Assembly: GCA_045639025.1 (NCBI GenBank)
Contig: JAZUCH010000005.1
Coordinates: forward strand, 2,806 to 66,805
Reading direction: 5' to 3'
Length of the DNA stretch: 64,000 bases
From: Bacteroidales bacterium
GTDB lineage: Bacteria > Bacteroidota > Bacteroidia > Bacteroidales > F082
Shown here: in pieces, positions 8,371-44,394 of the stretch
Position numbering within the stretch: the first letter of the stretch is position 1
Layout: each line of letters starts with the position of its first letter
Translations under genes and position numbers: made by a program
The notes under the pieces: generated by a model
Seen by the model: only the letters and a program-made list of their open reading frames with translations
What the model was told of the DNA's origin: nothing
The model's database searches: none

Positions 8371-8379
8371 TTTCTTCCG

Positions 8380-8707: not shown

Positions 8708-8722
8708 CAAAAAACGCAAGAA

Positions 8723-9343
8723 ATGAAAGAAATAAACCCAAAAGAAACCAAAAGAGCCTTCGCTTTTGAAATGTGGATGTCCTCCCCTATGCCAATGGTG
8801 ACATTGACAAAAACATTCGATATAACTCATATTGTCAGAATTAGCAAGAAAAGAAAAATGAAGCTCAACATGCTTCTCTGCTGGTGCATCGGAAAAGCAG
8901 CAAGTCAGATGGAGGAATTTTATCTATTGCCAGTAGAAGAAAAAATGTTTGAATATGACAAGCTAGCAATCAATGTGATTGTGAATAATGTAAAAGGCGG
9001 CATCAATTCCTGCGACATCAATTTCAATAATGATTTAAGTCAATTCAACAAAGATTACCTTTCATTGACAAAGCAAGTTGCAGAATCATGCGAGAGTATT
9101 TTCAACGAAGAAGCGATGATAGTTGGCACCTCAGCTGTAGTTGCGACAGAACTAGATTGCATTGTAAACCAATACACCGACAAATTCCTTAACCCGATGG
9201 TGATGTGGGGAAAATATCGCAGGAAATGGTTCAAAACAACATTGCCGATATCATTCCAGTTTCATCACGTACAGATGGACGGAGGCGACGCAGCAAGATT
9301 TTTAGAGATGCTGCAAAAGGAAATCAATAATTTGAAAATATAA
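8723..9343 (+). CDS. Chloramphenicol-acetyltransferase-family (CatA-like) O-acetyltransferase
   Basis: 206 aa from MKEINPKETKRAFAFEMWMSSPMPMVTLTKTFDITH. The C-terminal catalytic motif SFQFHHVQMDGGDAARFLEMLQ corresponds to the CAT HH..DG..(A/V)..F signature. Confidence 0.75.
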   Translation: MKEINPKETKRAFAFEMWMSSPMPMVTLTKTFDITHIVRISKKRKMKLNMLLCWCIGKAASQMEEFYLLPVEEKMFEYDKLAINVIVNNVKGGINSCDINFNNDLSQFNKDYLSLTKQVAESCESIFNEEAMIVGTSAVVATELDCIVNQYTDKFLNPMVMWGKYRRKWFKTTLPISFQFHHVQMDGGDAARFLEMLQKEINNLKI

Positions 9344-9404: not shown

Positions 9405-12400
9405 TTACATAACTATCAATTTTGCTGTCAATACTCTTCCGGTACCTGTCACGACTCGTATCGTGTATGAACCCGAAGTATCAATTTCAGGCAATTCTAT
9501 AGGGAATCTACGTGGAACTATAGAGTGAATCTTCAATCCGACTGCATTAAAGACTTCAACCACCATTCCTGCTTTATCTTCTTCAGTGAAGTTAGACAAT
9601 ACCATGACTCTTTCTGTCTGTCTTGCCGGGTTCGGTGTCAACATAAGTTCCATTGTTTCATACATAAAGCTGCATACCATAATACTATCGCAACCATGTA
9701 CAGAAGTGTAGTTAAATGTATGTACGCCAGGTTCTTCAATCCAATTACCGTCATATTCGTATGGGAATTGTTTTACCAAAACATTTTCTTCTATGCGATA
9801 AACTGGATTGATATTAAGTTTGAGTTTAACAATACTATCGTTGCCATTGTTATCTTTCAACTTATTGAAATATGAACCTTCAGCACTGACATTAAATCCA
9901 TTTTCTTCATAAGTGTTACCGAAACAGATAGCATCTTCTATCAAAGTATTATATAAAGTATTGAACTCAAATGAATATGGGTTCAAGAGAGAACCGAATG
10001 TCTCATTGACCTTAAATTCAACTCTTTGATTTGATACCTGAGCTACAACATCCTGGCTTTCGTGATTGTACAGCATGAAGTAAATCTCATCGCCATTATT
10101 ACCGTATGTTGTCAAGAACACACGATAAGCGCCTATTTCTTTAATATAGATTGCGCGAGCATTACCGCGTTTCTCACCATTACAGAACGCTCCTACTTCT
10201 AAAGTATCAGAGTTGCATACCCAATCATCGACAACAATATCAGCGATGAATGTCATGTTATCAGGATAGTTATAGCTTGGAGACCAATTGAGTTCTGCCT
10301 TAGCGATTTCCCTAGTTCTATTTTGTGTCATTTGTGGATATGTAAGAGTGATATCATCATCATTATTTGACATATACTGATATCCCATACCTGGTTGTAA
10401 TGTAGTAAGATCACCGAACCACATGTCGAACGCATCAAAATAAACAGAGAAACCATCGCGGTATGACTTGATGATATCGCCGTCTTGAGGTGCCACGTCT
10501 AAACCTTCGAGAGCCTCGTTGACATCACTAGAATATTGAGAGATATATCCAATATGATTCCATCCTTTCTTGATGTTAATAGGATGTTCTTCAGGAGCTG
10601 CCAAACAACCATTGATAAGTGTATTCTGCAATTCCTTAGTCTTAATCATATACATCTGCTCATTCTCAATTTCATTGAGAGAACCCAGCCAACCGCCACT
10701 TGGTGAATATGTTATGAACTCAGTGCTTGACTTAATCATTTCAGCATATTGACCTAATCCAGTCTTGAGTTCTTCCATAACATCAGTACCTTCGTCATCA
10801 ATATATGTAGAGAACCAATCCCAGGAAGCTGAGAAGTTGTTATATTGATCTCCATTTTGGCGTACTGTAAGGTCTAAAGCGACGATACTGTCACATCCGT
10901 TTTCTGTAGGGAACACAACATCATAAGTTCCAGACACTGTTGATTCATCAAATATATACTCACCGAATGGGTAAGGCAATTCAGAAGCACAGATACTTAA
11001 TTTATCAACGCCATATTTTGTTGGAAGCACCTCGAGAGTCAGAACGACGCTACTGTCGCAATGATGTGACGACTCTCCCATCTTGTAATATGTTCCAGCC
11101 TCTCTGATTGTATCTCCGAACAACATATAATATTCGTTAGAACAGATTGTAGCGTAAACAGGAACGTCATAGTAAGATGGCGCTACTTCAAGGTTGACTG
11201 TGACGATGCTATCGCAGCCAGTGAGTTTAGAAGTAAAGTATACGTCCTTAGTTCCTGACTTGATAAATACACTATCGCCATAGATATATGGCATATCATT
11301 AGCACAAACCATAATATCGTGTACTATCCTTGAAGCAGGACGTATTGTTAGATTTACCTGAATCTCATCATAACATCCGTAGGCATTAACAGTATCTCTC
11401 TTGAATACCAGCGTAGTTTCATCAAGCTGATCCCATCCTACAAGATGTTCTTGAATACTATCCCAAGTTATGTTCATGCCATAGTTATCATAATCTTCAT
11501 ACATACAAATATCTTCATCAAAGACGTAAACAACTGGATCTGGACGATGCTTTACTATATGTTTCACTATACTGTCGCATCCATAAGGTGTAGGTATTGT
11601 ATCATAATAATAACCGTCTTCTGTGATGATATTACCTGCTATTTCTATATAGTCATCTTTACAGAGATAATGGTCGACCAATGTTGTTGGCGGTGTCATT
11701 GTCTGTTCTGCGAATAATATGAACGCCTTGTCGAAACAGTCTCCGCTAACGTCTGTCGTTTTGACCAATATTGTATACATATATCGACCAAAACAACGCA
11801 AGTCCTTATTCAATTTAAGTTTTTTACCATCTATCAAGAAGAAATCATTGTCATATCCATCTTCATCTACTAAAGAATAAGTAAAGGCATCAGATGACTG
11901 GTCGTCAAGGGTTGTGAATTCTCCGATGACAGTTCCAATCTCATCATCTTCATAGAAATATCTGTTAGATAATAATATGTCAATAGGTGGATTATTGTTA
12001 ATATATGTAATCTGAGGTTTATCAGGGAATGGTTCCTTATTACCGACATTATCTATTGCCTGGAACATAAACTGATACAAAGAACCTTCACCCAGTCTAT
12101 ATTGGAACAACATAGTGTCAGCAGGATTAAGAGAATCAGGATATACGGTTCCAACAAATACATATTGTGTTTTATCCACATTTGCATATAAATCCACCTG
12201 TCTTACACCAGAACCGTTTTCATCGTCAGCAGCAACTGATTTAAAGATGAGGTTATAATCTAAAAGTACACCAGACGAGTCGCATACTGTTGTTGAAGTT
12301 GGAGTTACCGCATCGAACATATTGGTATAAGTATTTGTCAAAATGTTTTCATTCTCGTCAAAAATGATATTCGCCTGTTCTGAAATAGTATCACCAGTTT

Positions 12401-15400
12401 TCATATCATCTATGCTCATCACTGAGAATGTCACGAAACCTTCTCCGCTACCAGTAAGAGTGTCATTGACAGGCAAGAAACCAATAGCATCTATAGGAGC
12501 GATACCTGTTTCTGGGTCTATAGATTGGAATATCCAATACATTTCGTTGTTTTCCACATCAATACCAGCTGTCACATCAAGCCACACACCCAGAGAGTCT
12601 GCGAGATCATGACGTTTGCTGTAATATGTTGACATAGGAGGCACTTCAAAGATATAGTCTCCGAAACCATACTGACCGAGATTTATTGTTGTAGGGTTAG
12701 CATGAGGATGCAACGGACAAGTGATCTTCACACGAGCAGCAGATGCAGTAGCGAAGTTAGGGTCATTTTCGAACATGATCTTATAGTCAATTCTGTCGGT
12801 TGCAGCAATCATCTTATCTTCACCATAACCTACAGGTCCGAAAATCTCATTAGGGTCATTAGAAAAACAAAGATCTTTCCAATAAATAGATTTTGAATCT
12901 GACATCGTTCTATCCGTTACCACTTTATGAGTAATAGGATCCAATGTTCTATGATGTGCAGTGAATGTAATTTTTTTCGCATTAAGTGTCAAGGCAATTG
13001 TTTCCCTAGGCTTAAAATATTGTGAATTGTTTTCATAGTTCATTTGGATTGGAGGAATATAAGTGAATGTTTCATCATTATTATTATCCAACACATTATC
13101 AATAAATTTTCCTTCATCTATACTCATTGTATACCACCAATCTGTAGCATTATCATTCTGAATATAAGTGAATATCTCACCACCTGCATCTAAATCAAAT
13201 TTACCTGTTTCATAATAATGATATCCTAATGTTTCCACATAACAATTTCCCCAGCCAACCGAGAGCAATGCCATATAAGGCATAGCAAGTATATGCATTT
13301 GCTTCTCTGAAATTTTAGCTATAAAACTATACAAAGGTGATTTTGGATTAAAATTCTTAGGATAAACATCAATATAATAAACACCTACACCAAGATATTT
13401 CTTCACAAGAGTATTTTCCTCGCCAGGACTAAAATTATAATTAGTACCGTTTTCATCTTTCAATGTTATATCATATGCATCGTAAACAGTCTGACCTTCC
13501 TCAAGCTGATCATTTTGTGGAATTCTTAGCACAATACTACCATCATTGCTTCCACTAAATGACAGATCATTTACTTCTATGACTTCAAAAGCAGAACTTT
13601 TTGGAGAAATCTTCACGAGATAATGAGAGATGGTATCGGCAACTTTATTACATGACGATGCTGATATATAATATTGTCTCATAGTTCTATTTGGAATAAG
13701 CTCCATTTCAAAATCCTTACTACTTATTGTGAGGTTGCTATACTCTCCACTGTAATCTAACTTAAGACCTTCATCAATCAAGGCATCTATATCAGTCTCA
13801 GCTTCGGGCAATTCATCTTCGTAATATACTGTTGGAAGATAGCCATAGACGTCAAGTTTTGCATACAGTATAAATGAATGAGTAATTTCAGCGAAAAGTG
13901 CATCAGTACATTTACTATATACCGCGTAATATCTATCATATTTAACCTCACAACCATCATCATAATCTATAGTTTCTTCTAACTTAACATCTATATTATA
14001 ATCCAATCCACAACTTTGAGGGATTGTCACGCCCACTTTTGCGAAGTCTTCGATTGTTGACAGCGGTTCAGGGAGACAGCTTGAATCAGTACATCCATAT
14101 ATAGTATCATTAGGAATTTTTTTCTCTATAGTAACAATATCTTCTTCATCGGAGTCGTAAGTACGTATTTCATAATTTTCAGTAAGAATATTCTTATATA
14201 CAAATCCGTAATATTGAAGCATAATAGTATAATTTCTAAAATAATCTTTAGAACATGGATTCTCTTCTTTACGATAAGTTTTGTAATGTATAGTTAATGT
14301 ACCTGATCCATCAAAAGGTTCTGTTCTTAATAACAGTTCATCCAAGCTGACGGGCAACTCTATTGTTTTTAAATATTCTATAATAGCATCTGTGTTATTT
14401 TCAGGTGGCAATGAAGATAAATCGTCGCCACAACCAAACCATACTGATTTATCTGGTACTTCTGCAGAATTCACCACATTAGGTTCATACCTCTGTCGAA
14501 CCTTAACACCTTCAGATTCAGCACCACATTCAACGTTACGGATAGTGAATTCTCTTTCAAATATATATGGGAGTTTTTCATCCTCAAAATCTTCATATTC
14601 TATAGTAAGTTTTGCTTCCAAGGAAAGATACGCTTCCCAATTATGGGAAGCATTACTTTTCGAAAAACCATTTATTGTAAGGCCTGACTGAAGCAAATGG
14701 TCAAGATTAATATCCACATCGTATGGCACATTTTTAATGTCATAATATACACGTGTTTGCATTTCTCCTTCAATCTTAAGACCGCTATTGATCTCAATAA
14801 CTTGAACCAATTCTGCTTCAACATTATTACTTTCATTAGCATCTTCAAAAGAACATTTATCCTTTATTTTATAATACCTATGATAAATCTCTTCACAATC
14901 TACAGACGACACGTTTTCATCTTTCACAAATTCCACTGACAATTTATCGTTATACATCGCTGATATCTGAATTTCCTTATTCGCGTCTGTCAGTTCTTCG
15001 ACTGTTGTATATTTAGGAAGTTCATCCAGGTTGTCCAATGCAGTATCTCTAATTGTATCCATCACACCTGTCACTTCAAACAAATCGTCATCATTAAAAT
15101 GAAGAATCTCTACTACAAGCTTTGCTTCATATACATAAGCAATCTTTTTGCCATCTTCATTGGTAGAAATTCTTTTTATTTTATGTTCTCTCATTAAGGT
15201 GGTGTAACAACGTTCTTCAATAGGTGTACTATTATCAGGATAAAATTCCTCCCATTCTATTGTCTGTTCAGCATAAGGATCATCACAATATTGATCCAAC
15301 AATGTTACATGTTCAGGGAATATATCAAGCAAATACTCTGCTATCGTTTCTTCATTATACATAATACCATCCATATAGTCTCTTATATCATCATCAGGAT

Positions 15401-17018: not shown

Positions 17019-17037
17019 AAGACTATTATTTTAAAGG

Positions 17038-18330: not shown

Positions 18331-18374
18331 ACGCTATATTTTAATCTGTTAATAATCATTCTATCCGTCAGCAA

Positions 18375-19820: not shown

Positions 19821-19829
19821 ATAGCGATA

Positions 19830-37800: not shown

Positions 37801-38096
37801 ACGTCAACGCCTTCTACCATAGTAAAAACATTGGCAGAAGTGCCGTCGCCTGTATATGTTCCTGCCGCAACCCAAATCTCAGGATAAGAGGCATGCTCTG
37901 CTATGATAGATGCCGCCATATTAAGGGCTACATTCAAATCGGTTACTGCATCATTCCATGATGTACCTTCATTAGAACCAGCCGCATCAGCATCGACATA
38001 AATCGTTGAGAGATTAGGCACACTCTGCGCCTTAAGATTTATAGTCGCTAATAAAATTAAACTTGTTGCTAACAGTAAAAGTCTTTTCATAAGCAT
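19830..38096 (-). CDS. 6088-aa secreted giant protein: ten tandem choice-of-anchor-Q-like right-handed beta-helix modules, then FN3-like and multiple CARDB-like domains; no recognisable T9SS CTD
   Basis: A single uninterrupted 18.27-kb ORF with signal peptide MLMKRLLLLATSLILLATINLKAQ. Ten module starts have the form (I/V)YV....G..DGSSW.NA...LQ.A......(I/V)WVA.GTY....(V/I)YGGF.G.E....RD...N.TILDG. Each module ends D(L/I).G..R...G..D(I/M)GA(Y/F)E. FN3 lies around 24890-25160 (DLSVPEDKLTFTTADVTWTSNG..YFVKVRAICNE). CARDB-like units run from about 24465 to the stop (PDLHITAMDCSYAQTGQPMTVEWTVRNDGHGPT, PDLIATNVIVPYEHFAGDSITISWQLINQGG ...). Confidence 0.85.
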   Translation of the reverse strand: MLMKRLLLLATSLILLATINLKAQSVPNLSTIYVDADAAGSNEGTSWNDAVTDLNVALNMAASIIAEHASYPEIWVAAGTYTGDGTSANVFTMVEGVDVYGGFAGTETSLEQRDYETNVTILDGQGTQRVLYQEKAYTEATATVWDGFTIKNGGGMLNGAGAYINAYGTLRNCKITGNGSITLATSTDVYGGGIYVNGGTLENCKVYENHLKNTGSGDVFGAGVYMKDGYISGCEIYDNETNGSSSTYSQGGGVYIVKPNTNNISKIEDCNIYRNSSKGNGGGIYVSGYTNTKKLSIVVNCRIENNTSGYNGGGVFMQSYVDMIGCNIANNTSSNNGGGVYSNSNSKIVNCNIVNNYLTGTSSIYNGAGIYGQGNPTIINSIIWGNKKGTLSNQIHPTTLTYVTYSAIEGGYGTGNITLSADNTGTSTEVSYPKFTAPSEGAGSGYSGGNWTLQEGSAAINKGNTEGLGVTLPEKDLAGNARIQNGKIDIGAYESAFKGSSITPGANNVIYVATEERGEADGSSWENAVSNLQMAINVAAANNNKPQVWVEAGTYGNEEDGDHYIIIAEGVEIYGGFAGTETALEQRDLSANQTILDGKNKKRVLYQANDFTQNTTSVIDGFVIQNGYTTDRGAGVSLRDFTILRNCIIRNNTSTTYTSAIYAIGYVSVINCLITDNKSSGSNGYAVYLSDNTLFINNTVVNNINSSSFSSAGIYVSGSEVRIYNSILWGNTSDEINVNNNNNNFDIRNTAVEGGYNGIGVINLNSENTGDNGFYPCFTDPENGDYTLTENSICINKGSKTIVSLPATDIIGNERVQQGAVDLGAYESSHVPALNIVPSDNNIIYVTTTGAGSKDGSSWTNATDDLQLALDLANIYGSKVWVKGGTYKSDANSVYAFRLAPAVEVYGGFAGDESHDYDLSQRDFITNATILDGDNTKRVLHQESDFTETTAALWDGFTVRNGYDEESYKAAGAYIQDYVTLRNFIIYDNVSENGYAAGIMVDANNHSLIDNSVIRDNKNYASAYAGGAYISYAKITNTKIYNNETKGEGGGLYLGASTMVNCLVNNNKARLYSGVEASSGVIVNSTIVKNSVEYNYNAIYPAAYLNSTTVVNSIIWGNTHNGEYSQIGTGNSVNVTYSAIQGGWEGEGNINIELDNDGNVRGANYIRFLDGANNIFELQDNSVAVDAGNNENANVTEYDLNGKQRINGTTIDMGAFERYCVKYRHISKTLAQGGSINFYGSVITEPGQYQKRWAIDASCDSLVVMDVRVSSSVIYVTVTGAGSKDGSSWDNAMDNINDAVMAAFAQSGVDSRQVWVAAGTYSGYNSSTRFPMVSGVEVYGGFAGTETLFSERDVENNKTILDGAKSYNVLDKSTDNPATAENPAIWDGFCINGYNAVINNHCILRNSEITVKTEVNGGLLQNCTITNLQSGQNFKVKASSTVKGCKFVDNNTSGYSPLIELDNAVLDSCFVYGNTTNRNLIKATASNIEKTHIYKNTSKYSMIEAIETNITNSLIFNNAISGGTSGFFAIVYAKDNSVISNSNLMNNMVTFSTGGEVSQFDNAEDYYYQYNNVIIALKSSDIKNSVLWNNAISSFDNNFIAKDNLSNVDYCAIDGALYNGIGNIRITEANDSDIFSPRFVNPITDLGTIFNQETYDWSLKANSILFGHADDGKAIGAMSSDAASVMSLNPTDGVIYVSTEGSGLKDGSSWSNATPYLQYAIAQANTFDPIAEVWVEAGTYYGDGVVGNNAFNIVENVNVYGGFAGTETSVEDRDLENNKSILDGQNTQRVLFQDEPFADGETTTWDGFVIRNGYLNQKDFHSYNSVYCKASNLNGGMGIYHLVGAGAVVLGNTTLKNITFENNRIDTDASLDGAYSNWMMASNLALVGATADNINISNAVTVTSDKNNTRSSYLYAVNSNIINSTFKNNIGKIQTYGSTLDKCHIEGNRTFEDMPDMENNSVTIFEIFATTVKNTEIIGNKGATLLKTNVNGVQYANTYINTIIADNEGFTVVNHKFTNDDKFINCDIVSNKTTADVSTNKMISGGVFHNTVVWNNTNDIGVSSDFDRNNLEKYSFNNCAVELGLDGIDEVIALAPSNSGTSQTYEYPNFISPEGNNYELGENSVLIDAGDNSVVTEEIDAYGKERVGDGTVDIGAIESSCVLKREYKVVTMMDEYPFYGEWLTEPGIYIHRKEAKHDCDSIIVMHLTFKHIVYVNAEAKGLNNGTSWENAYTELKTACDSIKDNGNLTEIWVAKGRYRGDGTSVNAFILKPNVRLYGGFTGTEFADYDITQRDITANETILDGGYIQRVICMEEDATEETPVIIDGFTITKGFSRQSVSKGTALFMKKHFYIRNCIITDNCTNSEYGPGPIWIDAADFDNCNARKSINTFENCNIHHNQGTPVIHSENTSFFNCNIDNNDGLGVEVQTYTMLDGCSISNNKRRAIKIMWAAESFKDEYGYERIAVSFQDVYNTIISNNAGAVYQEDPKIVGGWGDGRYYNTVISNNKVTRTIDGEEDGNGGAFRKIGGSISLYNCTVINNSAKVSGGAFYGKFDEIVNTIIYGNKVNGNSNNLSNYYYFFDDEMKITREWVGLSNLRYCAVEGGYPGEGNITINKDYTLSLDGTALTPNSVCINAGTDALYDLTEYDLKGKSRVRQGRVDIGAQESDYSREDIIVPDANNVIYVDVTAKGSKDGSSWNNATADVQTAINYAATMDPRPEIWMKKGVYTMSANEGWAMFTIVPGTKIYGGFAGDENSATFNKNDRDMFENKTVLDAKDYYRAIDHYSSTYDYEKSIIDGFTFKNGNAEPIYLERIPISITSFPDEYMGGAIRLKDNVTVTNCELYNNVAVKGGAIYADNNSSKMNVVISYSKFHDNYAHTEGGAIVMSRKYDGIATQCDSIVNCEISNNKSDRFAGLNINWTKVLNSTIVGNNTEMYAFDTLSSTNHNNKYYNCILWNNVSRNYSNQIEGYDNTYEYCGIHGGYTGTGNINLDKYNTGTEEGVNYVNFIDPEGRAYQLQSNSAVTDKGNNAYSVGEFDLAGKDRIYNDNVDMGAYEGGCIGYRHMKVIANEEYVFYGDILTESGHYSKQWTPEGSACDSLVTLDLEVRMIWFVTETGAGKKDGSSWNDAMSDIQEAINKASSFQSESKKQVWVAKGTYMGNGSSAQAFQIKPGVEIYGGFAGNELNGIEFEDRDLVTNETILSGAQSQRVLGNYNAYEDFNVNENAVIDGFTIQEGYTTKEGGGIYVKNFVKVRNCIIKNNQGSAGAGIYADNKCEITDCKIYGNTALSQGGGAFCKSSVLTYCEINNNLIDNLTGSAKHGGGIYGENATINNCLIANNSVLTESSYGGGMYIGNSSLPSQLLNCTMVNNFSYYLGGGVYSANSGSNNEFINCIMWGNKTDLNTQQVAVSASNVPIYVRYCAIQGGAAGIGTINLTAENGNDMFSPRFVNPTEKVGANYWGGDWRIKEGSICINMGERLEYMIEQDLDDEKRVKQDRIDIGAYETNGTNSFRIYPDGNNIIYVNANNTGSDMTGSSWDNAINDLQLALNFAADDDNHPKVWIAKGTYTGNGWPYVDAFIGLNGIDIYGGFVGNEAHDYDLTQRDLVNNATILDGQNIQRTLHQAHSTHFKYSLDPMHYAIYDGLTIRNGFVYCNYGGNVLMRKGELRNSIIENGAAIEGLWNSLGEQCGAAGIYADTKEVSVINSVIRNNKVTNAIGGGYYGPITFRNCLINNNGAVKDDRYGGVDAYAGAGTSAQDSKSPKTKHYNSTIVNNYAYDGVGGISNYELVENSIIWGNKIEGNITSNLNLDDVDVSYYNTQVNYSAVEGGCVGKGNIILNAANSGSDDINYPMFVNPTTAVGVGNYGAGDWRLQDGSVCVNRGSTISLVTDVDLDGNPRIINDSIDMGAYESNFEINHEIIPDANDIVYVTEKGAGTKDGSSWANATPYLQFAMDRIYQYERPIKFWIAKGTYKGNGVASNPAFIMPDNVSLYGGFVGNEAANFDLSLRDFDTNKTVFDGQNKQQILIRDLKDNKSGTRNRIDGIRFMNGRSVNKGAAARLSNVEVYNSGFLYNTNLSSPLSTNGGGALYIVNNVSVHDCAFRDNTTTASGGAILVANGINDTISYCYIGLNKADIRGGGIYGVQCKIYNSVIIQNSAKEGGGVFTYGKIVNSTVVNNVADGDAQGAYAGGIYASGEFPIYNSIVWGNRAGNYISNIRHSHYGPDFQYSACERDEFVPDPATNIILETENSGSNVALNYVSFERLEDGWYNLSETSDCIDKGNKDLTHYLDFDYDGNERVRGANIDMGACEHNPTSCKMISDLSVPEDKLTFTTADVTWTSNGTEAEWLVYFDRAGENSPTLMTVDTTYITIDSLSPNLEYFVKVRAICNEIEMSPYSNPVYFTTECNPDSVVWVNYFETDNLLPENDQALQANSKVLFSWDHIEGAESYELWLWRVDDGHGLAEPDFPVAYNITNNYHTIDLKASVYQGYGRYPRLLPYIPIEEQLPGYLEQTLEEDIAYYAWKVVAYRECAAIETDTMYFNTALPDLHITAMDCSYAQTGQPMTVEWTVRNDGHGPTPVGETWYDYIVLSYPIDWTTESFTQVPYESFIIDRVENLTALQVGESYTNTATITVPDDMYGAVFLFVLSNWNPNAGLGLNFAQYGGVFPNPYTPNLYGEGKPYGFMSGYNKKAGNASFEEINGVDNFFYKAIEVDIPPIPDLIATNVIVPYEHFAGDSITISWQLINQGGAAFENIPVTDNIYMSTKDVFDDDAIMLGAFRDTISIERNDTLTRTAKFITNEKDIDTFYFFVETDVRDQVYESLFEHNNISFCSEHPTVFMLVPPADLTIENIVISSDTLSPNEKFKISYTVKNIGYKNTNENSKWSEDTCAMLPPIYGKPWRDEIYISKESEFDNSAEELMTYNNNKILWTLGELEAIIDTIDVFVNCKFPEIIPSDTITVDSDEWNQYLQEKEIQDLKREALRHEKLELYKNSYTVEKEVLIPEEYEDGLYYIHILTDQGDNIFEYNKEDNNAISDTVRVVLPDLYVYGLTLDENRDTVRYIVKNIGQGQIIDGQMSNTVNYNNAQIFNNRIESINLNPNDSLIMKLPIHLECNFYTDNTLKVESRYVGNEKTFTNNNQTIDLQLFNPDFFADELVLISRNEITYTITNRGYVDFNDTVNIRYYLGLSPELNFITAEELLSKYEPMSLAIGETVTITEYVTMPQSAEGIYYLYVSVNDDENVCEGDNTYTNYIVSESFEVSLRPYSDLEILHVDMPESAMAGDTIVLPYTIGETQGVEFYNLRETIVTNRLYISSEPQFNINNAKYLCSNSMTYGDIIDFSHYGNGCKGYFEFVLPADITTAQYLYIVVDAEDVVYEHIGENNNIYQSPLLDVGLYDCDLEVRYLARLIGDIYWGDVVSYEYEVRNNGTKPTVKSYFNTIYLSEDNVLDGGDIKIRTFRANRLKAGESQIGVIDVTIPYGIGPDVYIIMVADDGNNNPDTNPSNNIACMGENVYSVPVPDLEISNVDIVTEYPAAGQPIRVAYTVTNIGDKVAASWIDKIFWSRNTYDNGILGGINYNDNLNLDPGQSYNDTIELIIPLPNTGNFALYIDVNASNGERMLFEVNYENNLGMHTVNVDHNPPGDIIVEAISHPYMVTSGDDMEIKYHLKNLGPNKLEGKGCNDVIYLSTDQTFSPDDILLGNIDHDLVLPNYSYEEYTFTADISGIPEGEYYIIIYGDARNSFYEVDENNNRGYSAYPFEVQVPELFFDTPITFKLKDLVHKDFKLNINGNINETVRIHVSSLDAEIGAVNNIYVKHNSIGSNMDYDFSTDGDMEGNSEVYIPTTRAGYYGISVMGNDPLDDEQMVTIEANILPFEIRSVESNTAGNTGKVTVKLIGSKFRYDMPVRLFMGNPADSTMYNIIEAEELYYINFNEVCVTFDMTGAEEGVYSIEAYNYCAGYTYLMNSFVVVPGLPENLSTNLIIPDGLRLNRYCILTLEYGNIGNTDIVNPKIRLCSLAGAWIGLERGEINVHRTELDIPIGMEGEPEGILRPGVRYTVPIYCFTNDGLGFVIYTNDEIYQFEQLKDEVE

Positions 38097-38168
38097 TTAT
38101 GTTTTGGCTATGAGCTACGGGCTATGAGTTGTGAGCAAAATAATGGTTCAATGCTCACCGCTCATGGC
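38097..38168 (-). promoter_or_regulatory. Intercistronic stem-loop built from heptamer stutter repeats, between the 729-aa and 6088-aa genes
   Basis: On the minus strand AUGAGCGGUGAGCA pairs with UGCUCACAACUCAU (12 of 14 positions) around a 13-nt loop. No U-run follows. The giant gene ATG lies about 35 nt downstream. Confidence 0.5.
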
Positions 38169-40358
38169 TCATCGCTCAAAGCATTTATTCAATAAAATTT
38201 TTTGTGTATTAATTCCTTTATCGTCAATTTTCTGAATGATATATACGCCTGCGCTATATCCGTTTGTCTGAACAGAATGAACATCGTCTCTGCTAAACAC
38301 ACGACGTCCAGTCACATCGTATATGTTAATCTGCGCATTACCATTTATATCGTCAATGATTATCTCACCATTATTTATATATGCGAAATGGCTGTGAGCT
38401 GTGGGCTGTGAGCTGTGAGCCATTGTCAATACAAATCTGTCACTGTCGTTATCTTCTGAATGAATAAAGGTATATGACTCTGTCTGAAGATTTACTTTTG
38501 CTCCTGTCTGTTTATCTTCCAGGATGATATTATCAAATTCGTTTCCTATTTCACTAAGAGAAATGGTATATCTTGACATACTACCTGCTTCAAAATTCAA
38601 AGGAAGTGATTTCTCATCGTCGATATAAACCACTGTATAATTTCCTACACCTTTATTAATATATAGAGATGGAGCTGATTCATTTAAACTGAACATCTTG
38701 AAGACATCGTCGTTGTCGCCAATAACTACCGCTATTTCATCTTGTCCTGATGCGCCATTGACTCTTACCTTGAAGATATTTTCGTCATTGTCTTTTCTGA
38801 AAGCTGATTTAGTTCTGGTTCTTATATCATTAGTCATCACGAAATCACCTGGAGTTTTTGCTTTCACGAAGAATCCTTGACAAGGTGCAATATATTGTGA
38901 GCCGCCGTTTGTCGCCACGCCACCAAGTGTGTAAGTGATGTAGTTATTCACGTCATCGTCATAAATCCATACAGTCTGAAGTTCCAGCATATCGCGATTC
39001 CAGCCTTTTGTTTCCCAGTCGATGTAACTAGGATAAGGATTTCCGAGGAGGTTGAAGCCTGTATATCTTTCTATTACAAATTCTCCGTCAGTGCTACATG
39101 AAAGAGGATATGTCACATCGCCATTATTCAAAACGCCTGTAAATTTCTTGTAATCCTCATTTTCGTAAGCCACGAGATAACCTCTTCCCTTTGCAAAGCT
39201 AGATCCGTTATCTGTATAAAAATCATTTGTCGTTGAATTGTCTTTTTTCTGGTTGTTCCATGTTGAGTTAAATTCCGACCAGGAATAGAAGTCGTAGTTT
39301 TCTTCTGTAGGAATGAAACTCTCAATCGTCTGATTTACGACAGGAGAAGAGATGAAATGCCAGTCGGCGCTCCAGTTTCTAGAAATACTGCTGTTATCGA
39401 TATAGCAATTCACTTTTGCTATGACATCATCATCATTATGAATCAAAGAACCTATACCGTTGATGTCTGCGTCCACTATCAAAGCGTTTTCATCTGTATT
39501 TGCGATATCGCCTATTATCTCAAGAGCTCCTGTTGATGTTATTTTCAAAGTGACATCTGGCAATATCTCCACATCTTTCACTATATAATTCGAGGTAGCG
39601 TCGAGGTCTTCTGCCACTATAATATCATCTATCATTTCTGGATTTGATGAAGGAAGTTCTGTCGCTGGCTGAGGATCGGTCCAGCCTTCACATACGAGTT
39701 GCCAATTAGATATCTCATTCCAGTCTTTGTCTGTTCCGATAAATTTATATTTGATTGTATAATAATCAACGACGCCAGCATTAAGGTTTGTATTTGAAGA
39801 AGAATACGTAATAAAGAAATCACCTACGACATTCAATTCTGTTCCGATTTCATGGTCATAAAAACGAAGTACTATATCGTCATTTTCATTGCCATAAATC
39901 GTAAGAAATAAAAGATACATGCTTCCTTGTTTCCTTATGAATGCCCTACCTCTCACCTCATCACCGCAGAATGCACCAATCTCGATGTTTTCACCAGCTA
40001 ATTCTCCGTCAATCTTAATCTGACCATAAACTGTCATGTTAGTTCCATCAGACGACTCGACAGGATTATCAAAATAAAAATTCTGAGCCACAGCAGATGC
40101 GTTGAAACTCAGAATCAATATCAATAAGACAAGTAATGACTTATTGTTTTTTTTATTGCGATTTGTACGTGATTTTATTGTCAGATAGCCCGCACCCAAT
40201 AATGACAGAGCAAACAGTCCATTACCGAGAGGTACCGGAGATTGAAAATTATCATTCAATCCGTGAGATTTTGGCAGACCAGGCGCAAAGATCTCATCAG
40301 AGCTTCTGTAGTATTCATTATTATTATAATTAAAGAAACTATCAGACTGAGCTTTCAC
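38169..40358 (-). CDS. 729-aa exported protein with a T9SS type-A C-terminal sorting domain. As sequenced it starts at a GTG inside a G8 tract and is probably the frameshifted body of a longer ORF starting at ATG 40437.
   Basis: C-terminus ...NAQINIYDVTGRRVFSRDDVHSVQTNGYSAGVYIIQKIDDKGINTQKILLNK is a typical Por CTD. An internal signal-like segment is KSLLVLLILILSFNASAVAQ. The ORF-track start is GTG at 40358. See the poly-G feature and finding. Confidence 0.75.
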   Translation of the reverse strand: MKAQSDSFFNYNNNEYYRSSDEIFAPGLPKSHGLNDNFQSPVPLGNGLFALSLLGAGYLTIKSRTNRNKKNNKSLLVLLILILSFNASAVAQNFYFDNPVESSDGTNMTVYGQIKIDGELAGENIEIGAFCGDEVRGRAFIRKQGSMYLLFLTIYGNENDDIVLRFYDHEIGTELNVVGDFFITYSSSNTNLNAGVVDYYTIKYKFIGTDKDWNEISNWQLVCEGWTDPQPATELPSSNPEMIDDIIVAEDLDATSNYIVKDVEILPDVTLKITSTGALEIIGDIANTDENALIVDADINGIGSLIHNDDDVIAKVNCYIDNSSISRNWSADWHFISSPVVNQTIESFIPTEENYDFYSWSEFNSTWNNQKKDNSTTNDFYTDNGSSFAKGRGYLVAYENEDYKKFTGVLNNGDVTYPLSCSTDGEFVIERYTGFNLLGNPYPSYIDWETKGWNRDMLELQTVWIYDDDVNNYITYTLGGVATNGGSQYIAPCQGFFVKAKTPGDFVMTNDIRTRTKSAFRKDNDENIFKVRVNGASGQDEIAVVIGDNDDVFKMFSLNESAPSLYINKGVGNYTVVYIDDEKSLPLNFEAGSMSRYTISLSEIGNEFDNIILEDKQTGAKVNLQTESYTFIHSEDNDSDRFVLTMAHSSQPTAHSHFAYINNGEIIIDDINGNAQINIYDVTGRRVFSRDDVHSVQTNGYSAGVYIIQKIDDKGINTQKILLNKCFER

Positions 40359-40365
40359 CCCCCCC
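40358..40365 (-). promoter_or_regulatory. G8 homopolymer (C8 on the plus strand) at the 5' end of the first gene of the giant operon; candidate slipped-strand phase switch or homopolymer sequencing error
   Basis: The plus strand reads ttcaCCCCCCCCgtc. ATG 40437 opens a 31-codon ORF, MRNICCLAKPLVVIIIFLLSVNQDGGGESSV*, that passes through the tract. A G7 or G10 tract would fuse it in frame to the 729-aa ORF. Confidence 0.7.
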
Positions 40366-40462
40366 GTCTTGATTTACAGAAAGTAAGAATATAATAATGA
40401 CAACCAAAGGTTTAGCTAAACAACAAATATTTCTCATAAAAACCTATTTTTAATTCAACATA

Positions 40463-40470
40463 CAAAAATA
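40463..40470 (-). promoter_or_regulatory. -7 promoter box (TATTTTTG) upstream of ATG 40437
   Basis: The plus strand reads caaaaata, about 26 bp upstream of ATG 40437. This points to 40437 as the real translation start of the first operon gene. Confidence 0.5.
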
Positions 40471-40527
40471 GGCTATAATATTTTAAAAGTCAATAAGTAA
40501 TATTACATATTTTTTTAATAATTCAAA

Positions 40528-41172
40528 TTACAGTTTAACAATGCCATGTTCTATTGACCATTTCAACAATTCTATAGTATTGTTAATGCCGAGCTTTTTA
40601 AAGATATTAGACTTGTGCATTTCTACAGTACGATGGCTTATATTTAGACGAGAAGCTATTTCCTTCGACAGCAATCCATCACAACACAAAACTATCACTT
40701 CTTTTTCTCTTTCAGTAAGTTCAGCTAATGAAGATGATGGCGTATCTTGGTTACTGCGTCCCATTATCTTAGTGACGTCAACGCCATAATAACTAATGCC
40801 AGAATGTACATTATGTATTGCTGTTTTAATTTTCTCAATATTAGTAGTCTTTGGCACAAATCCGTCTATTCCAACCTTAATAAGTCTATATATTATTTCA
40901 TCTTCATTTATCGATGATAAAATAAGTATCTTGAGTTTAGGGAAATCTTTTTTCAGTTTTCTCACAGCATCTTCACACGACATTCCTGGCATTTGAATAT
41001 CAAGCAAAACCACATCAACTTTTTTATCTGGCAATATAGAAAACAGTTCGTCTGCCGAAGATGCTTCTCCAGCTACATTTATCTCGTCCTTATATGACAT
41101 CAATGAAGCTTTGACGCCCAACCTCATCAAAGGATGGTCATCAACTAAAATGACATTTATCATATCACACAT
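40528..41172 (-). CDS. LuxR/NarL-family two-component response regulator
   Basis: The receiver domain has INVILVDDHPLMRLG ... DVVLLDIQMPGMS ... KILILSS. The C-terminal LuxR HTH reads LTEREKEVIVLCCDGLLSKEIASRLNISHRTVEMHKSNIFKKLG. It overlaps the kinase stop by 8 nt; an alternative ATG is at 41163. Confidence 0.9.
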   Translation of the reverse strand: MCDMINVILVDDHPLMRLGVKASLMSYKDEINVAGEASSADELFSILPDKKVDVVLLDIQMPGMSCEDAVRKLKKDFPKLKILILSSINEDEIIYRLIKVGIDGFVPKTTNIEKIKTAIHNVHSGISYYGVDVTKIMGRSNQDTPSSSLAELTEREKEVIVLCCDGLLSKEIASRLNISHRTVEMHKSNIFKKLGINNTIELLKWSIEHGIVKL

Positions 41173-42967
41173 TTCCTTTCTTTAATTTAAATGAAAACTC
41201 ACTGCCTTTTCCTGGAGTACTTTCTATATGCAACTTAGACTCGCAAATACTCAACATCTTATTTACTATTTCCAATCCGATTCCATTGCCATCCTCACCG
41301 TTTGTGCCAGACGTAGTAAATGTTTTTCCAGACAACAATAATTTCTTCTTTTCCTCTGAAATGCCAACACCATTATCTTTAACGACTATTCTTATACAAT
41401 CGTCCTCATCCATAAAATACAAACTCACTTCAGTATTTTCATAACTAAATTTCAACGCATTGCTTATAAGATTCCTTAATATCGTTGACACCATTTTAAT
41501 ATCAGAAAAGACATAACAATTATCAGAATCAGACGCCTCGTCTTCTTTAACTATTATATTTTTCTTTTTGAGCATTGTATTATACAATGGAACTATCTCA
41601 TCAAAGCACAATGCCTTAACATCGAATTTTAACGGGTTGTACTCTATTCTTTTCGCCTCATATCTAGTCCATTCTAGAAGATTTGTCAACAACTCTTCCA
41701 AAGAACTTACAGAATCTGTCAAAGCATCAATATACATCTTAAGTTCTTCATTGCTGAACGAATCAAGATTATCATTCAACTGATGCAACACAAGTTTCTG
41801 AGCTATGACAGGATTTTTCAGGTCATGCGACAATACCGACAAGGACTTTGTTCGGGTGTCATTCAGTTCTACCAAAGCTGTATTTCTTCTCTTTCTTGCG
41901 ATTCCGTTTATAATCAAAAGCACGACTATGACAATAAGCAATGCTATTACTAAAAACATCAATTGAAATATGTTTTTGTTATATTTCACTTCCTTCTTAT
42001 ACATTTCTATTTCAGTTTCCTTTTCCTGCATATTATACTTAGCTTGGAAATCATTAAGCATCTGCTGGTTTTTCTCATTGAATATCGAATCTTTTATATT
42101 CACATATTGTTCGAAATAATCTATGGCAAGTCGTGGGTTTATATCTTTATACACTTTAAACAATGACATTGATATTTCTTGTATCAGCAATCTATTATAG
42201 ATATTTTTCGCCAACTTCAAAGATTTCTCATAATAATATATTGCCGAATCTATTTTATCTTCCTGTCTGTTCAAATCTCCCAAAGAATGTAACACTATTG
42301 ACATTCCATATTTGCTTCCAGCTTTTTCAAAATATTGATATGCCTCCACTTCGCAGCGTTTAGCCTCCTCGGTACGATTTGTAGCCTGATACACTTCACC
42401 GAGCTGATTCAAGCGAATAGCAATCTTGTTTGGACGTCCAATCTCTCTATCTATAAGCAGGCCTTCTTCAGCAGAAGCTATCGCCTCTTCGTATCTGCCC
42501 ATCTTCAAGTATGCCGTCGATATATTTCCCAGACGAACAGCGAGCTGCGACTTCCTGCCTAATTCTCTCTCAATATCAATACTTTTGTTGAAATAAACAG
42601 AAGCAATACTATCCATATCATTAACCATATACACATTACCGATATTATTCAAGACAGAGCTTTGCAAGTCTGGCATTCTAAGTTTTATGGCCACATCGTA
42701 TGCTTGCATATTATATTCAAGAGCTTCATCCATGTTACCTAGCCTTTGGTTAGAGAATCCCATATAATAAAGGCTGTTGAATACCAATACGGTATCTGTT
42801 GTATTTATTGATTTTTCATATAAATCTTTAGCAAGATTACAACACTCCAAATACTTTTCAGCTTTAAATAGCTTTGATACATTATTGTATATTGTGTCAA
42901 GGTTTTCCGACTTCAAACTGTAGCAAGAAAACAATAATAAAAAAAACAACAGCAATTTTGATTTCAT
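41165..42967 (-). CDS. TPR-repeat sensor histidine kinase
   Basis: Signal peptide MKSKLLLFFLLLFSCYSLKSE, periplasmic TPR repeats, one TM segment (IFQLMFLVIALLIVIVVLLIINGI), HisKA H-box LSVLSHDLKNP, and HATPase N and G boxes (NLISNALKF, DNGVGI, GNGIGL). The start is set at ATG 42967 because the ORF-track start at 42988 is TTG. Confidence 0.88.
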   Translation of the reverse strand: MKSKLLLFFLLLFSCYSLKSENLDTIYNNVSKLFKAEKYLECCNLAKDLYEKSINTTDTVLVFNSLYYMGFSNQRLGNMDEALEYNMQAYDVAIKLRMPDLQSSVLNNIGNVYMVNDMDSIASVYFNKSIDIERELGRKSQLAVRLGNISTAYLKMGRYEEAIASAEEGLLIDREIGRPNKIAIRLNQLGEVYQATNRTEEAKRCEVEAYQYFEKAGSKYGMSIVLHSLGDLNRQEDKIDSAIYYYEKSLKLAKNIYNRLLIQEISMSLFKVYKDINPRLAIDYFEQYVNIKDSIFNEKNQQMLNDFQAKYNMQEKETEIEMYKKEVKYNKNIFQLMFLVIALLIVIVVLLIINGIARKRRNTALVELNDTRTKSLSVLSHDLKNPVIAQKLVLHQLNDNLDSFSNEELKMYIDALTDSVSSLEELLTNLLEWTRYEAKRIEYNPLKFDVKALCFDEIVPLYNTMLKKKNIIVKEDEASDSDNCYVFSDIKMVSTILRNLISNALKFSYENTEVSLYFMDEDDCIRIVVKDNGVGISEEKKKLLLSGKTFTTSGTNGEDGNGIGLEIVNKMLSICESKLHIESTPGKGSEFSFKLKKGNV

Positions 42968-42985
42968 ATAAGATATATTATTTCG

Positions 42986-42993
42986 CAAATATA
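42986..42993 (-). promoter_or_regulatory. -7 promoter box (TATATTTG) for the kinase / response regulator genes
   Basis: The plus strand reads caaatata, 19 bp upstream of ATG 42967. Confidence 0.5.
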
Positions 42994-44393: not shown

Positions 44394-44394
44394 G

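Follow-up and report, generated by a model that had tools for sequence, protein, structure and literature searches.

What kind of system is encoded by five consecutive genes for exported proteins (A-E) that occupy 48.4% of the 64-kb stretch of DNA analysed here (the window)? The 31-kb block proves to be both real and conserved, and it encodes exported proteins of uncultured gut Bacteroidales. Our tentative reading of it, to which we assign a probability of roughly 0.45, is a T9SS-dependent multi-protein apparatus that may form a cell-surface fibre or adhesin.

Organization and conservation of the cluster

The ORF check of the window returned five minus-strand open reading frames of 729, 6088, 481, 430 and 2537 aa (10,265 codons in total, ~31 kb), with gaps of 72, 9, 44 and 19 bp for A/B, B/C, C/D and D/E, respectively, and with coordinates, strand and lengths exactly as given in the initial annotation (Table 1). 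The obvious signal peptides that it had reported for four of the frames were read directly from the translations as typical Sec signal peptides at the N-termini of B, C, D and E, that of B being MLMKRLLLLATSLILLATINLKAQS.

Table 1. Positions of genes and sequence features of the locus within the window
Feature	Position	Strand	Basis or remark
Gene E	9405-17018	-	2537 aa
T9SS type-A tail of E	9408-9638	-	TIGR04183, 24.4 bits vs cutoff 23
DUF7619 segment of E	12321-12476	-	50.7 bits
Gene D	17038-18330	-	430 aa
TSP3 repeats of D	17041-17694	-	TSP_3, 98 bits
Gene C	18375-19820	-	481 aa
Gene B	19830-38096	-	6088 aa, giant secreted protein
Conserved C-terminal module of B (CARDB + terminal domain)	19833-21146	-	residues 5651-6088
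Ten tandem beta-helix + choice-of-anchor-Q units of B, ~400-480 aa	25107-38009	-	residues ~30-4330
Long stem-loop, A stop to B start	38097-38185	-	MFE folding
Gene A as sequenced	38169-40358	-	729 aa, GTG start
Gene A, full length (~755 aa) if tract is G7	38169-40437	-	homologue leaders, TIGR04183
T9SS type-A C-terminal sorting domain of A	38190-38369	-	TIGR04183, residues 666-723
Poly-G tract (G8) in signal-peptide codons of A	40358-40365	-	sequence; C8 on + strand
Imperfect palindrome I20, 16-nt arms, 12-nt gap	40436-40479		inverted-repeat scan
Promoter-like element (TTGAC 40493-40489, TATTTTTG 40470-40463)	40463-40493	-	conserved in alignment
LuxR/GerE-type response regulator, 214 aa	40528-41172	-	Response_reg and GerE matches
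TPR-repeat histidine kinase, 607 aa	41165-42988	-	TPR_12, HisKA and HATPase_c matches

Regarding conservation, relatives carry the five genes in synteny. The order B-C-D-E recurs in five further lineages (L001, L002/3, L004/5, L014 and L018) at identities of 48-98% for B, 26-96% for C and 56-92% for D, with gaps of 3 to ~55 bp and completely changed flanks, and it is kept even where the identity of C is only 24-37%. A immediately precedes B in each of the six lineages examined; the distant L018 cluster has an A-like T9SS protein downstream of E. The closest records in public databases bear the labels of Bacteroidales or Lentimicrobiaceae MAGs, and not of Prevotellaceae, the family initially proposed for a survey.

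These data bear on an unlikely alternative, according to which A-E would be co-located, independently acting surface or secreted proteins, for example separate adhesins, with C and D playing no role in export or anchoring of B. Independence would be consistent with the failure of C and D in all sequence-based carrier and anchor family tests, with the different placement of A in L018 and with an N-terminus of E that can be exchanged separately from C (window against L002: 75% identity for C, only 36% for the E N-terminus). It is harder to reconcile with a B-C-D-E order and short gaps that survive both a drop of C to 24% identity and a complete change of flanks, with the co-conservation of D and the B C-terminus at 68-70% mean identity, and with a C family recovered only in this context: of 185,579 species representatives, the two that yielded it each carry the cluster.

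Domain content and variability of the encoded proteins

Gene B is uninterrupted by a stop codon over 18.3 kb and its product contains Beta_helix matches, ten choice-of-anchor-Q units, weak, sub-threshold fn3 matches and CARDB (110 bits). The units start at residues ~30, 508, 844, 1272, 1690, 2213, 2676, 3112, 3521 and 3910 (self-BLAST of 150-aa chunks), and NCBIfam model NF041518 matched in 6+4 stretches. The C-terminal module is 82-95% identical in L002, L004 and L014 and 52-71% identical in L018, the 400 aa before it only 34-65%; a scan of the module gave CARDB at 25.3 bits and nothing further. Neither a type-A nor a type-B sorting domain was detected in B, even at E<=10, nor were sequence relatives found in the PDB. 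Since B has no such domain, its export by the T9SS is an assumption. B thus described has its ten beta-helix units arrayed on an fn3/CARDB stalk; in the proposed apparatus it would reach the surface and be retained there by means of the conserved C-terminal module, with C and D as partners. The modules initially listed for the locus were recovered by profiles in the case of beta-helix, CARDB and TSP3, fn3 falling below threshold, while no profile recovers any cadherin-like domain.

The product of gene C, whose likely start is M10 at 19793, begins with a signal peptide, followed by a pair of Ig/PKD-like domains, a helical linker and a C-terminal domain of ~10 long beta strands; the AF2 model (pLDDT 74) likewise has two Ig domains, helices and a long-hairpin beta domain. 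Foldseek with C gave matches to tandem-Ig structures only, and a fold search with the C-terminal domain alone gave no significant match (best E = 0.13, TM <= 0.31). Profile searches detected no PorP/SprF family signature, and the C-terminal ends of the family members do not share a conserved OMP beta-signal. The family keeps vicinal cysteines (CC or CxxC). The gene is mosaic, because module identities are discordant between homologues: P0008 is 67% identical in the Ig part and 95% in the beta domain, P0041 81% and 34%, respectively.

The product of gene D has a signal peptide, an N-terminal domain (~20-210) and calcium-binding TSP3 repeats (~213-430), the latter matching in the PDB the calcium-binding wire of COMP (3fby, 2.7e-49) and thrombospondin-2 as well as the TSP3 segment of 5wtl, an OmpA-family protein of the Bacteroidota; an OmpA_C peptidoglycan-binding domain and a lipoprotein signal are both missing. 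These repeats are the sole basis for the earlier description of the apparatus as calcium-dependent, which is over-stated. Neither C nor the N-terminal domain of D matches a family in Pfam, NCBIfam or the PDB, and the giant fibre or adhesin that the cluster most likely builds would use accessory proteins of unknown families. C may act as a carrier or anchor for B, and D as a calcium-stiffened strut or tether.

The product of gene E comprises a signal peptide, hypervariable N-terminal repeats (approximately six of ~100 aa at residues 32-700 by self-similarity analysis), a DUF7619 segment, repeats that contain cysteines, a module in common with A (residues 2251-2348 of E resemble residues 105-190 of A) and a T9SS type-A tail. 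Of the type-A tails reported for the first and last genes, that of A passes TIGR04183 at 27.9 bits (cutoff 23; PF18962 at residues 664-722, below cutoff) and that of E is marginal, passing TIGR04183 only if scanned in isolation and having no reported PF18962 match. Both proteins would cross the outer membrane via the T9SS and attach to the surface like other type-A cargo. The surface fibre or adhesin reading of the initial annotation fits this content of beta-helix, CARDB, TSP3 and isopeptide-type (DUF7619) domains together with two T9SS tails.

Mean identities are 46% for C and 38% for the E N-terminus, and 70% for the B C-terminus and 68% for D. The hypervariable mosaic parts (C linker and beta domain, E N-terminal repeats) may be exposed and selected, or ligand-facing. 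Such rapid divergence of C and the E N-terminus, the mosaic structure of C seen in P0008 and P0041 and a phase-variable switch typical of contingency loci (see below) could also point to recognition or antagonism driven by diversity, be it kin recognition, contact-dependent inhibition or specificity in co-aggregation, with hypervariable C and E N-terminus as allele-specific determinants presented on a stalk formed by B. We consider this improbable: profile and PADLOC searches of the locus returned no family of toxins, nucleases, Rhs or immunity-like proteins and none from PADLOC, the variable genes are large and encode signal peptides, and the extreme C-terminus of B, the position where polymorphic toxins sit, is its most conserved part. 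Immune or phage pressure on exposed parts of an adhesin explains the hypervariability equally well.

Leader, promoter and regulatory neighbourhood of gene A

The start of A is placed at ATG 40437 because homologues show an in-frame leader from there, which supports the earlier suggestion that A gains an N-terminal signal peptide from this codon. The leader is bipartite, with a first signal peptide, a 45-aa segment, a PLGNG-TM-basic segment and a second signal-peptide-like TM ending in AVAQ, followed by the mature domain and the type-A CTD; it is present in 85 homologues of at least 740 aa, down to 36% identity. Comparison with homologues shows the window copy to be frameshifted by one G in a poly-G tract, G8 being out of frame (OFF) and G7 in frame (ON). 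The tract, at the reported 162 bp from the regulator stop, is the sole G or C run of at least 7 in the 64 kb, where ~0.2 runs of at least 8 are expected from composition.

The G8 state recurs in L012, an independent lineage at 87% identity, whose near-identical siblings L015/16/17 are G7; L019/20 are also G7. Nine 90%-identity clusters of A, including P0046 of the window, begin with 'MKAQ' or 'MGGVKAQ', and the in-frame siblings of truncated clusters read 'NQGGGVKAQ'. The occurrence of G7 or G8 in near-identical metagenome sequences suggests phase variation of A, the slippery G run apparently turning the gene on and off; G8 in individual records could be a homopolymer assembly error. Slipped-strand G7/G8 variation in the signal-peptide codons would thereby gate expression. 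The out-of-frame A, in a window whose source is apparently a metagenome-assembled genome (P0046, 100% identical, occurs in NCBI only), might instead reflect a decaying or mis-assembled locus, through a pseudogenising mutation or homopolymer error, with a presumed operon that does not function here. This is very unlikely given intact B, C, D and E, 18.3 kb of it stop-free in B, the recurrence of G8 in the independent lineage and a G/C run of at least 7 that is unique in the window and falls right within the leader codons.

Phase variation of surface-protein genes through repeats in leader-peptide codons is known from Neisseria opa (CTCTT repeats), and poly-G contingency genes occur in Campylobacter and Haemophilus. 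Gene A resembles these in having a slippery tract in signal-peptide codons, in which a one-unit change toggles the frame, and in the presence of both tract states in natural near-identical sequences. It differs in its host, a gut Bacteroidales, and in being known from sequence records and not from within-population switching. Documented phase variation in Bacteroidales is mainly via invertible promoters.

Expression probably begins at a promoter directly upstream of A. The promoter-like element is kept in four lineages in the alignment, whatever the upstream gene, and a sigma-70 scan also marks 40493-40465. The Bacteroidetes -33/-7 consensus is TTTG/TAnnTTTG, which TTGAC and TATTTTTG match. 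Palindrome I20 overlaps the -7 box and the A start codon, its arms are retained in L012 and L015, and it may serve as an operator or form a 5' structure. Downstream of A, the stem-loop between A and B folds with an MFE of -22.5 kcal/mol (z = -3.8), the extended identical stem-loop of L019 with -35.3 (z = -5.9), and the spacers of L015, L008 and L023, of an unrelated sequence type, fold equally well (z = -5.1 to -6.5). The stem-loop is not followed by a U-tract. With this conserved hairpin between A and B, the single five-gene operon of the initial annotation is a presumed unit, and the hairpin probably fixes the ratio of A to B-E transcript.

The TPR sensor kinase and LuxR regulator reported upstream on the same strand have full HisKA/HATPase_c and Response_reg/GerE matches, in agreement with that assignment. 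A kinase orthologue (63% identical) adjoins the cluster in L008-11, with a regulator copy in L008 that is 66% identical to that of the window, and a kinase homologue adjoins it in L019/20; in L021/22 the regulator is reduced to an 88-aa GerE (LuxR) HTH, and in L015-17 and L023/24 unrelated neighbours take the place of the kinase beside A. The pair adjoins A in two outer contexts, a BNR gene (window and L019) and RmuC/SbcCD (L008). With the pair beside A in no more than three of the six lineages, a remnant in one and none in two, it is a frequent, non-obligatory neighbour. The dedicated two-component control proposed earlier thus lacks support; a conserved Bacteroidetes-type promoter travels with gene A itself, and the pair probably modulates expression in about half of the lineages.

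Comparison with known surface systems

Profile, PDB-sequence and fold searches place the set in no characterised system, as initially stated. A parallel with operons of a T9SS type-B cargo, SprF-like carrier and PorE-like anchor had been missed. Genes of type-B cargo are directly followed by a SprF-like carrier gene, and in five operons of F. johnsoniae a PorE-like gene also follows (PMC12618676, PMC9143113). Compared for gene order with such operons (F. johnsoniae Fjoh_3952-3951-3950; P. gingivalis PG1035-PorP-PorE), the B-C-D arrangement likewise has a large surface protein gene, then one for a mid-sized beta-rich protein and then a third accessory gene, in a Bacteroidota host and with T9SS tails on other genes of the locus (A and E). 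D-like TSP3 repeats occur in the OmpA-family protein 5wtl, and the vicinal cysteines of the C family loosely recall the Cys-X-Cys of the SprF tail (PMC12635249). Every sequence-based membership test for this arrangement fails, however: B has neither a type-B nor a type-A CTD; a PorP_SprF signature is missing from C, which has two Ig domains at its N-terminus and ~10 predicted strands against 14; and D has no OmpA_C, TPR, beta-propeller or lipobox. Among known systems this arrangement is the closest in its logic, and the function of A-E is inferred only.

SprB/RemA of Flavobacterium are similarly multi-thousand-residue repetitive Bacteroidota surface proteins with small accessory genes nearby; B differs in its beta-helix units and in having no SprB-repeat or lectin domains and no CTD, gliding genes are not in evidence and the accessory proteins are unrelated.

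Export of B by a two-partner or autotransporter-like route, with C as a dedicated outer-membrane pore in which Ig domains replace POTRA and the C-terminal domain forms a barrel, has the slightest probability: like FHA/FhaC and ShlA/ShlB the locus pairs a giant beta-helical exoprotein, which we take to resemble TpsA/FHA-type proteins, with a beta-rich partner modelled as two N-terminal beta-sandwich domains before a beta-rich domain, FhaC, FapF, Pla and BAM components are among the low-ranking fold neighbours of C, and 5 of 16 C-family members end in Phe, but a TPS/Haemagg_act domain is missing from B, C gives no match to ShlB, POTRA (Omp85) or Bac_surface_Ag and lies downstream, its beta domain of ~175 aa and ~10 strands cannot accommodate a 16-strand Omp85 pore, none of its fold matches is significant (probability <= 0.6) and its C-terminal residue is not conserved.

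Regarding the preferred fibre or adhesin apparatus, E finds a further parallel in fibrillar adhesins with CLIPPER/DUF11, DUF7507 and DUF7619 stalks, DUF7619 being one of their isopeptide-type stalk domains (PMC12617251). The DUF7619 match of E is partial (profile positions 81-132) and its anchor is a T9SS tail instead of a sortase or other signal; like these adhesins, E has a DUF7619 segment and long Ig-like repeat arrays, and it is variable in the distal N-terminal region with a cell-proximal anchor signal.

Organization, conservation and regulation of the cluster

The five minus-strand genes of the 31-kb cluster, called A to E in order of transcription, are located exactly where the initial annotation had placed them, separated by 72, 9, 44 and 19 bp and together comprising 10,265 codons, or 48% of the window. 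The cluster is genuine and conserved. The initial annotation had made its proposal depend on synteny of the five genes in relatives, and this was found, as the order B-C-D-E and the adjacency of A and B are kept across lineages: the giant gene is followed by C, D and E in every locus where the context of C could be examined, and A lies directly 5' of B in six of six lineages sampled. B and C lie 9 bp apart in the window, as they do in the related contigs L001-L005 and L014; the distance is 19 bp in L018, a contig that was found by profile search and was the sole locus from a metagenome scan with a narrower C-family alignment; in L018 the gene for an A-like type IX secretion system (T9SS) protein sits after E. 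Homologs of C are rare, amounting to 45 clusters in 5.8 billion proteins and present in two of 185,579 GTDB species representatives, both of them gut Bacteroidales MAGs, and the gut assemblies in which the cluster occurs are of human type and from roe deer and rhinoceros. No recorded contig was retrieved by exact look-up of C, D or P0046 (a protein cluster 100% identical to A), and a search with the conserved C-terminus of B returned nine fragmentary matches only, with no further gene context.

Features of the cluster in the window and of related loci (window coordinates unless a contig is named)
Feature	Location	Strand	Description
Gene A	38169-40358	-	729 aa, GTG start as sequenced
Gene B	19830-38096	-	6088 aa
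Gene C	18375-19820	-	481 aa
Gene D	17038-18330	-	430 aa
Gene E	9405-17018	-	2537 aa
LuxR-type response regulator	40528-41172	-	upstream of A; full domain set
TPR histidine kinase	41165-42988	-	upstream of A; full domain set
Poly-G tract	40358-40365	- (C8 on + strand)	G8, in A signal-peptide codons
Tract sites in relatives	L012:254-283; L015:10063-10091
Bipartite leader of A	40160-40437	-	residues ~1-95 of in-frame form
A-B hairpin	38097-38185; L015:12254-12331; L008:12251-12328; L023:10257-10341		between A stop and B start
L001/L013			B-C-D-E order; C 96% identical to window C
L002/3			B-C-D-E order; C 75% identical to window C
L004/5			B-C-D-E order; C 37% identical to window C
L014			B-C-D-E order; C 34% identical to window C
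L018 (rhinoceros-gut contig)			B-C-D-E order; B 50%, C 24%, D 56%, E 35-45% identical

The kinase, with HisKA and HATPase_c domains, and the regulator, with a receiver and a DNA-binding output, have the composition of a classical two-component system. Control by this pair had been described as dedicated, which is only partly borne out: the pair adjoins A in three of six lineages (the window, L019/20 and L008-11); of the others, one (L021/22) has lost the kinase and is cut down to an 88-aa GerE HTH, while L015-17 and L023/24 have no pair next to A. L008-11, whose pair shares 63-66% identity with that of the window, has an inserted AAA_14 gene and different outer flanks. The stand-alone 88-aa GerE/LuxR HTH gene of L021 (7656-7922) is situated between RmuC and gene A.

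A conserved promoter-like element, TTGAC...TAnnTTTG (about 40463-40493), accompanies A in every gene context. An imperfect palindrome with 16-nt arms (40436-40479) extends over both the -7 box and A's start codon, and might serve as an operator for the LuxR-type regulator or form a 5' structure in the RNA. Between A and B a hairpin of 25-30 bp is found in all five lineages checked (z = -3.8 to -6.5), built of two unrelated sequence types, GAGC/GCTC and TTTAAGG/CCTTAAA repeats, and in none of the five is it followed by a U-tract. The hairpin may act as an attenuator or stabilizer, and a single uniform transcript of five genes should therefore not be assumed. Scans for sigma-70 promoters and for terminators did not rise above background, with no terminator in the short gaps between genes, and Rfam assigned nothing inside the cluster to a known RNA family. 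Independent adhesins that happen to be co-located are an unlikely alternative in view of the tight gene order conserved across lineages.

The poly-G tract and leader of gene A

That ATG 40437 is the real start of A is borne out by its homologs, about 110 in number and most of them ~750 aa long, which start with MRN/KxxC...VNQ(D/G)GGVKAQ, corresponding to ATG 40437 read in frame through the tract. With the eight G of the window, this frame runs into a stop five codons past the tract, whereas seven G give the full ORF, and the N-terminal Sec signal peptide of A is encoded in the G7 frame only, being out of frame in the window. No other G/C run of 7 or more occurs in the 64 kb. Contigs from different samples that are near-identical around the tract are one G apart, with G8 in L012 and G7 in L015/16/17; G7 is also found in L019/20 and G4 in L023/24, and the commonest lineage is without a tract. 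Starts downstream of the tract ('MKAQ' or 'MGGVKAQ'), representing the OFF form, were found in nine protein clusters at 90% identity, that of the window included; eight OFF clusters have an ON sibling, P0061, in the same lineage, and other tract-bearing lineages are in frame.

A homopolymer that decides the reading frame at the 5' end, with length polymorphism between near-identical sequences, are the marks of a contingency gene, and on this sequence evidence the tract appears to be the signature of a slipped-strand switch, making A a candidate for phase variation. Documented phase variation in Bacteroidales mainly involves invertible promoters; the tract of gene A is a possible case of the homopolymer type in these bacteria. 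Individual G8 records may be assembly errors; that the locus as a whole reflects decay or artefact, as the out-of-frame A might be taken to imply, is very improbable.

The bipartite leader of A consists of a signal peptide followed, in this order, by ~45 residues (FF..Y...R...APGLPxSHG), a PLGNG-TM-KSRKNRNKK segment and an unusual second signal-like TM ending in AxAQ. It is retained in homologs down to 36% identity, and no family was assigned to it by Pfam or NCBIfam. This arrangement predicts that a small membrane hairpin peptide of roughly 70 aa would be released from the T9SS cargo. The cluster of PLGNG, TM and basic residues resembles a C-terminal sorting signal.

Protein architecture and possible modes of export

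Ordinary Sec signal peptides were present at the N-termini of B, C, D and E, as the initial annotation had indicated, and the type-A sorting tails that it assigned to A and E were recovered with NCBIfam model TIGR04183, that of E marginally. The tail of A scored 27.9 bits, above the cutoff of 23 (19.3-21.4 bits with PF18962, under its cutoff of 27), and that of E scored 24.4 against 23 as an isolated 99-aa tail only, TIGR04183 not being reported for the full protein and Pfam reporting no tail either. Regarding domain content, Beta_helix, choice-of-anchor-Q, CARDB and TSP_3 were present, fn3 was seen below threshold and the 'cadherin-like' modules were not recovered. No significant PDB sequence match was obtained for A, for a profile of C, for E or for either part of B.

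The giant protein B is made up of ten tandem units of ~400-480 aa, each of beta-helix and choice-of-anchor-Q (residues ~30-4330), followed by a CARDB region with sub-threshold fn3. Neither a type-A (TIGR04183) nor a type-B (TIGR04131) C-terminal sorting domain (CTD) was detected in its full-length halves or, even at E<=10, in its last 150, 300 or 438 aa. Over its last 440 residues B reaches some of its highest conservation (82-95% in nearer lineages, 52-71% in L018), and the 400 residues preceding them are variable. A polymorphic-toxin reading was rejected because the extreme C-terminus is among the most conserved parts of B; toxin domains were not found with Pfam. Export of so large a beta-helix protein by a two-partner secretion-like route is the least probable of the explanations considered, as B has no TPS domain (Haemagg_act) and C no POTRA or Omp85 domain in Pfam and NCBIfam.

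Protein C matched no family in Pfam and NCBIfam at E<=10, PorP_SprF included, apart from a sub-threshold PKD match. In its AF2 model (pLDDT 74), two Ig/PKD-like domains precede a helical linker, after which comes a domain with roughly ten long beta strands (pLDDT 64-80), to be set against the 14-strand barrel of PorP/SprF. With full-length C, Foldseek retrieved generic tandem-Ig proteins only, and the linker and beta domain, predicted again on their own, gave no significant match in PDB and BFVD, the non-significant neighbors being outer-membrane barrels mixed with pore-former hairpins (TM <= 0.31), so that assignment to the outer-membrane barrels is not claimed. Among 1.84 billion representatives, a profile search picked up several dozen proteins of 400-520 aa whose architecture is apparently the same; the 13 members read share vicinal cysteines, as CC or CxxC, and a conserved GFAGED motif, and the 10 scanned had no Pfam match. 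Most distant members have CC, and the subfamily of the window has a single Cys and CxxC (C325, C440, C443). SprF is disulfide-linked to GldK via a Cys-X-Cys tail (PMC12635249), and the cysteines of C recall, as a lead only, the twin-cysteine motif of SprF/PorG that forms disulfides with GldK/PorK.

Protein D has an N-terminal domain without assigned family and TSP3 repeats, which match the calcium-binding wire of COMP/thrombospondin (PDB, E = 2.7e-49) as well as a Bacteroidota OmpA-family protein; it is the only protein of the cluster with PDB sequence matches, and these cover the TSP3 repeats only. Apart from TSP_3, no domain was found in Pfam and NCBIfam, including OmpA_C-like peptidoglycan-binding domains, and the signal peptide ends in ...GLKAQ without the Cys of a lipoprotein signal. 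Identification of D as the MYXO-CTERM cohesion protein MtsC (NF047638) was rejected at 175 bits of the 350 needed, all within the TSP3 repeats. Protein E comprises about six N-terminal repeats of ~100 aa, a partial DUF7619 segment, Cys-containing repeats and, ahead of the T9SS tail, a module common to A and E. DUF7619 has predicted intramolecular isopeptide bonds in fibrillar-adhesin stalks (PMC12617251).

The cluster is best read, at a probability of about 45%, as encoding a surface apparatus (fibre or adhesin) linked to T9SS; this reading is based on the Sec signals, two type-A tails, adhesin-type modules and conserved tight gene order. A and E would be T9SS cargo, and B would be held on the surface via its conserved C-terminal module by C as carrier or anchor and by D as a calcium-stiffened tether. 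Nearly half of the 64-kb window would then represent one conserved surface apparatus of uncultured gut Bacteroidales. In general plan the cluster is of a familiar type, since giant surface-protein loci that include accessory genes and T9SS tails are known from Bacteroidota. It is set apart from these by a CTD-less giant protein, by two accessory families that have no known relatives, by components that are hypervariable and mosaic, and by a homopolymer switch. No part of it has a characterized homolog, and in every search made here it matched no characterized system, in agreement with the initial annotation.

In known operons, a type-B cargo gene has the gene for its SprF-like carrier directly after it and then one for a PorE-like protein (PMC12618676, PMC9143113). 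The arrangement of B, C and D is parallel to this, with C directly downstream of the putative cargo gene in the position of a PorP/SprF-like gene; however, B is without a CTD, C without the PorP_SprF signature and D without OmpA_C or lipobox. As every sequence-based mark of membership is missing, B-C-D may work like that system and is not called a member of it. A more far-reaching and rather doubtful proposal is that B-C-D constitute an unrecognized export and anchoring route for a giant CTD-less beta-helix fibre, in which C replaces PorP/SprF, D replaces PorE, the poly-G tract of A phase-varies the whole apparatus and the leader of A co-produces an inner-membrane hairpin peptide and T9SS cargo. 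As a new carrier family in that route, C would be defined by its signal peptide, GFAGED, two PKD-like domains, helical linker and twin-cysteine long-hairpin beta domain. If C and D help B to the surface and no known T9SS signal is involved, this would be a new class of cargo and a new carrier family in Bacteroidota.

Mean pairwise identity among six lineages was higher for the C-terminus of B (70%) and for D (68%) than for C (46%) and the N-terminus of E (38%), and the quick modular divergence of the latter two suggests that they are parts exposed to selection. Discordant identities of C modules (Ig domains 67% and beta domain 95% in protein cluster P0008; 81% and 34% in P0041) indicate, from sequence comparison, recombination between them. 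Strict co-variation of C type and E N-terminal type was rejected, C being 75% and the E N-terminus 36% identical between the window and L002. A diversity-driven system of recognition or antagonism would fit such variability and is nonetheless distinctly unlikely, with no matches of A, C, D and E in PADLOC. Within the surface fibre or adhesin reading, the hypervariable mosaic parts of C and E and the G7/G8 switch mark strong selection by host, phage or competitors, which makes the locus a candidate determinant of colonization or aggregation.

Flanking region

Two 100%-identical tRNA-Ser(UGA) genes in direct orientation (8379-8464 and 44577-44662; also 44394-44481), with ~35 nt of common upstream sequence, bracket a 36-kb segment, in which a CAT-like gene, the cluster itself (E-D-C-B-A), the regulator and kinase genes and a BNR-repeat gene are located. 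The tRNA copies have no integrase between them; through these repeats the entire segment could be lost or duplicated. In L001 (20437-21419) and L002 (21017-21440), E is followed on the same strand by a gene for a 359-369-aa protein with Flg_new_2, a T9SS tail and the module of A residues 73-205, in place of which the window has a convergent CAT-like acetyltransferase gene (8687-9343) and tRNA-Ser.

Two further fn3-rich, exported-looking proteins, of 802 aa (3403-5811, minus strand) and 608 aa (53045-54871, minus strand; CarboxypepD_reg and BACON_2), point to a general abundance of surface proteins in the region. A Flavo-1 sRNA match (3166-3294, plus strand) and a TPP riboswitch (49927-50039, plus strand) are unrelated to the cluster; the riboswitch is just upstream of an 808-aa ORF (50084-52510), by position the counterpart of a TonB-dependent receptor of L015.
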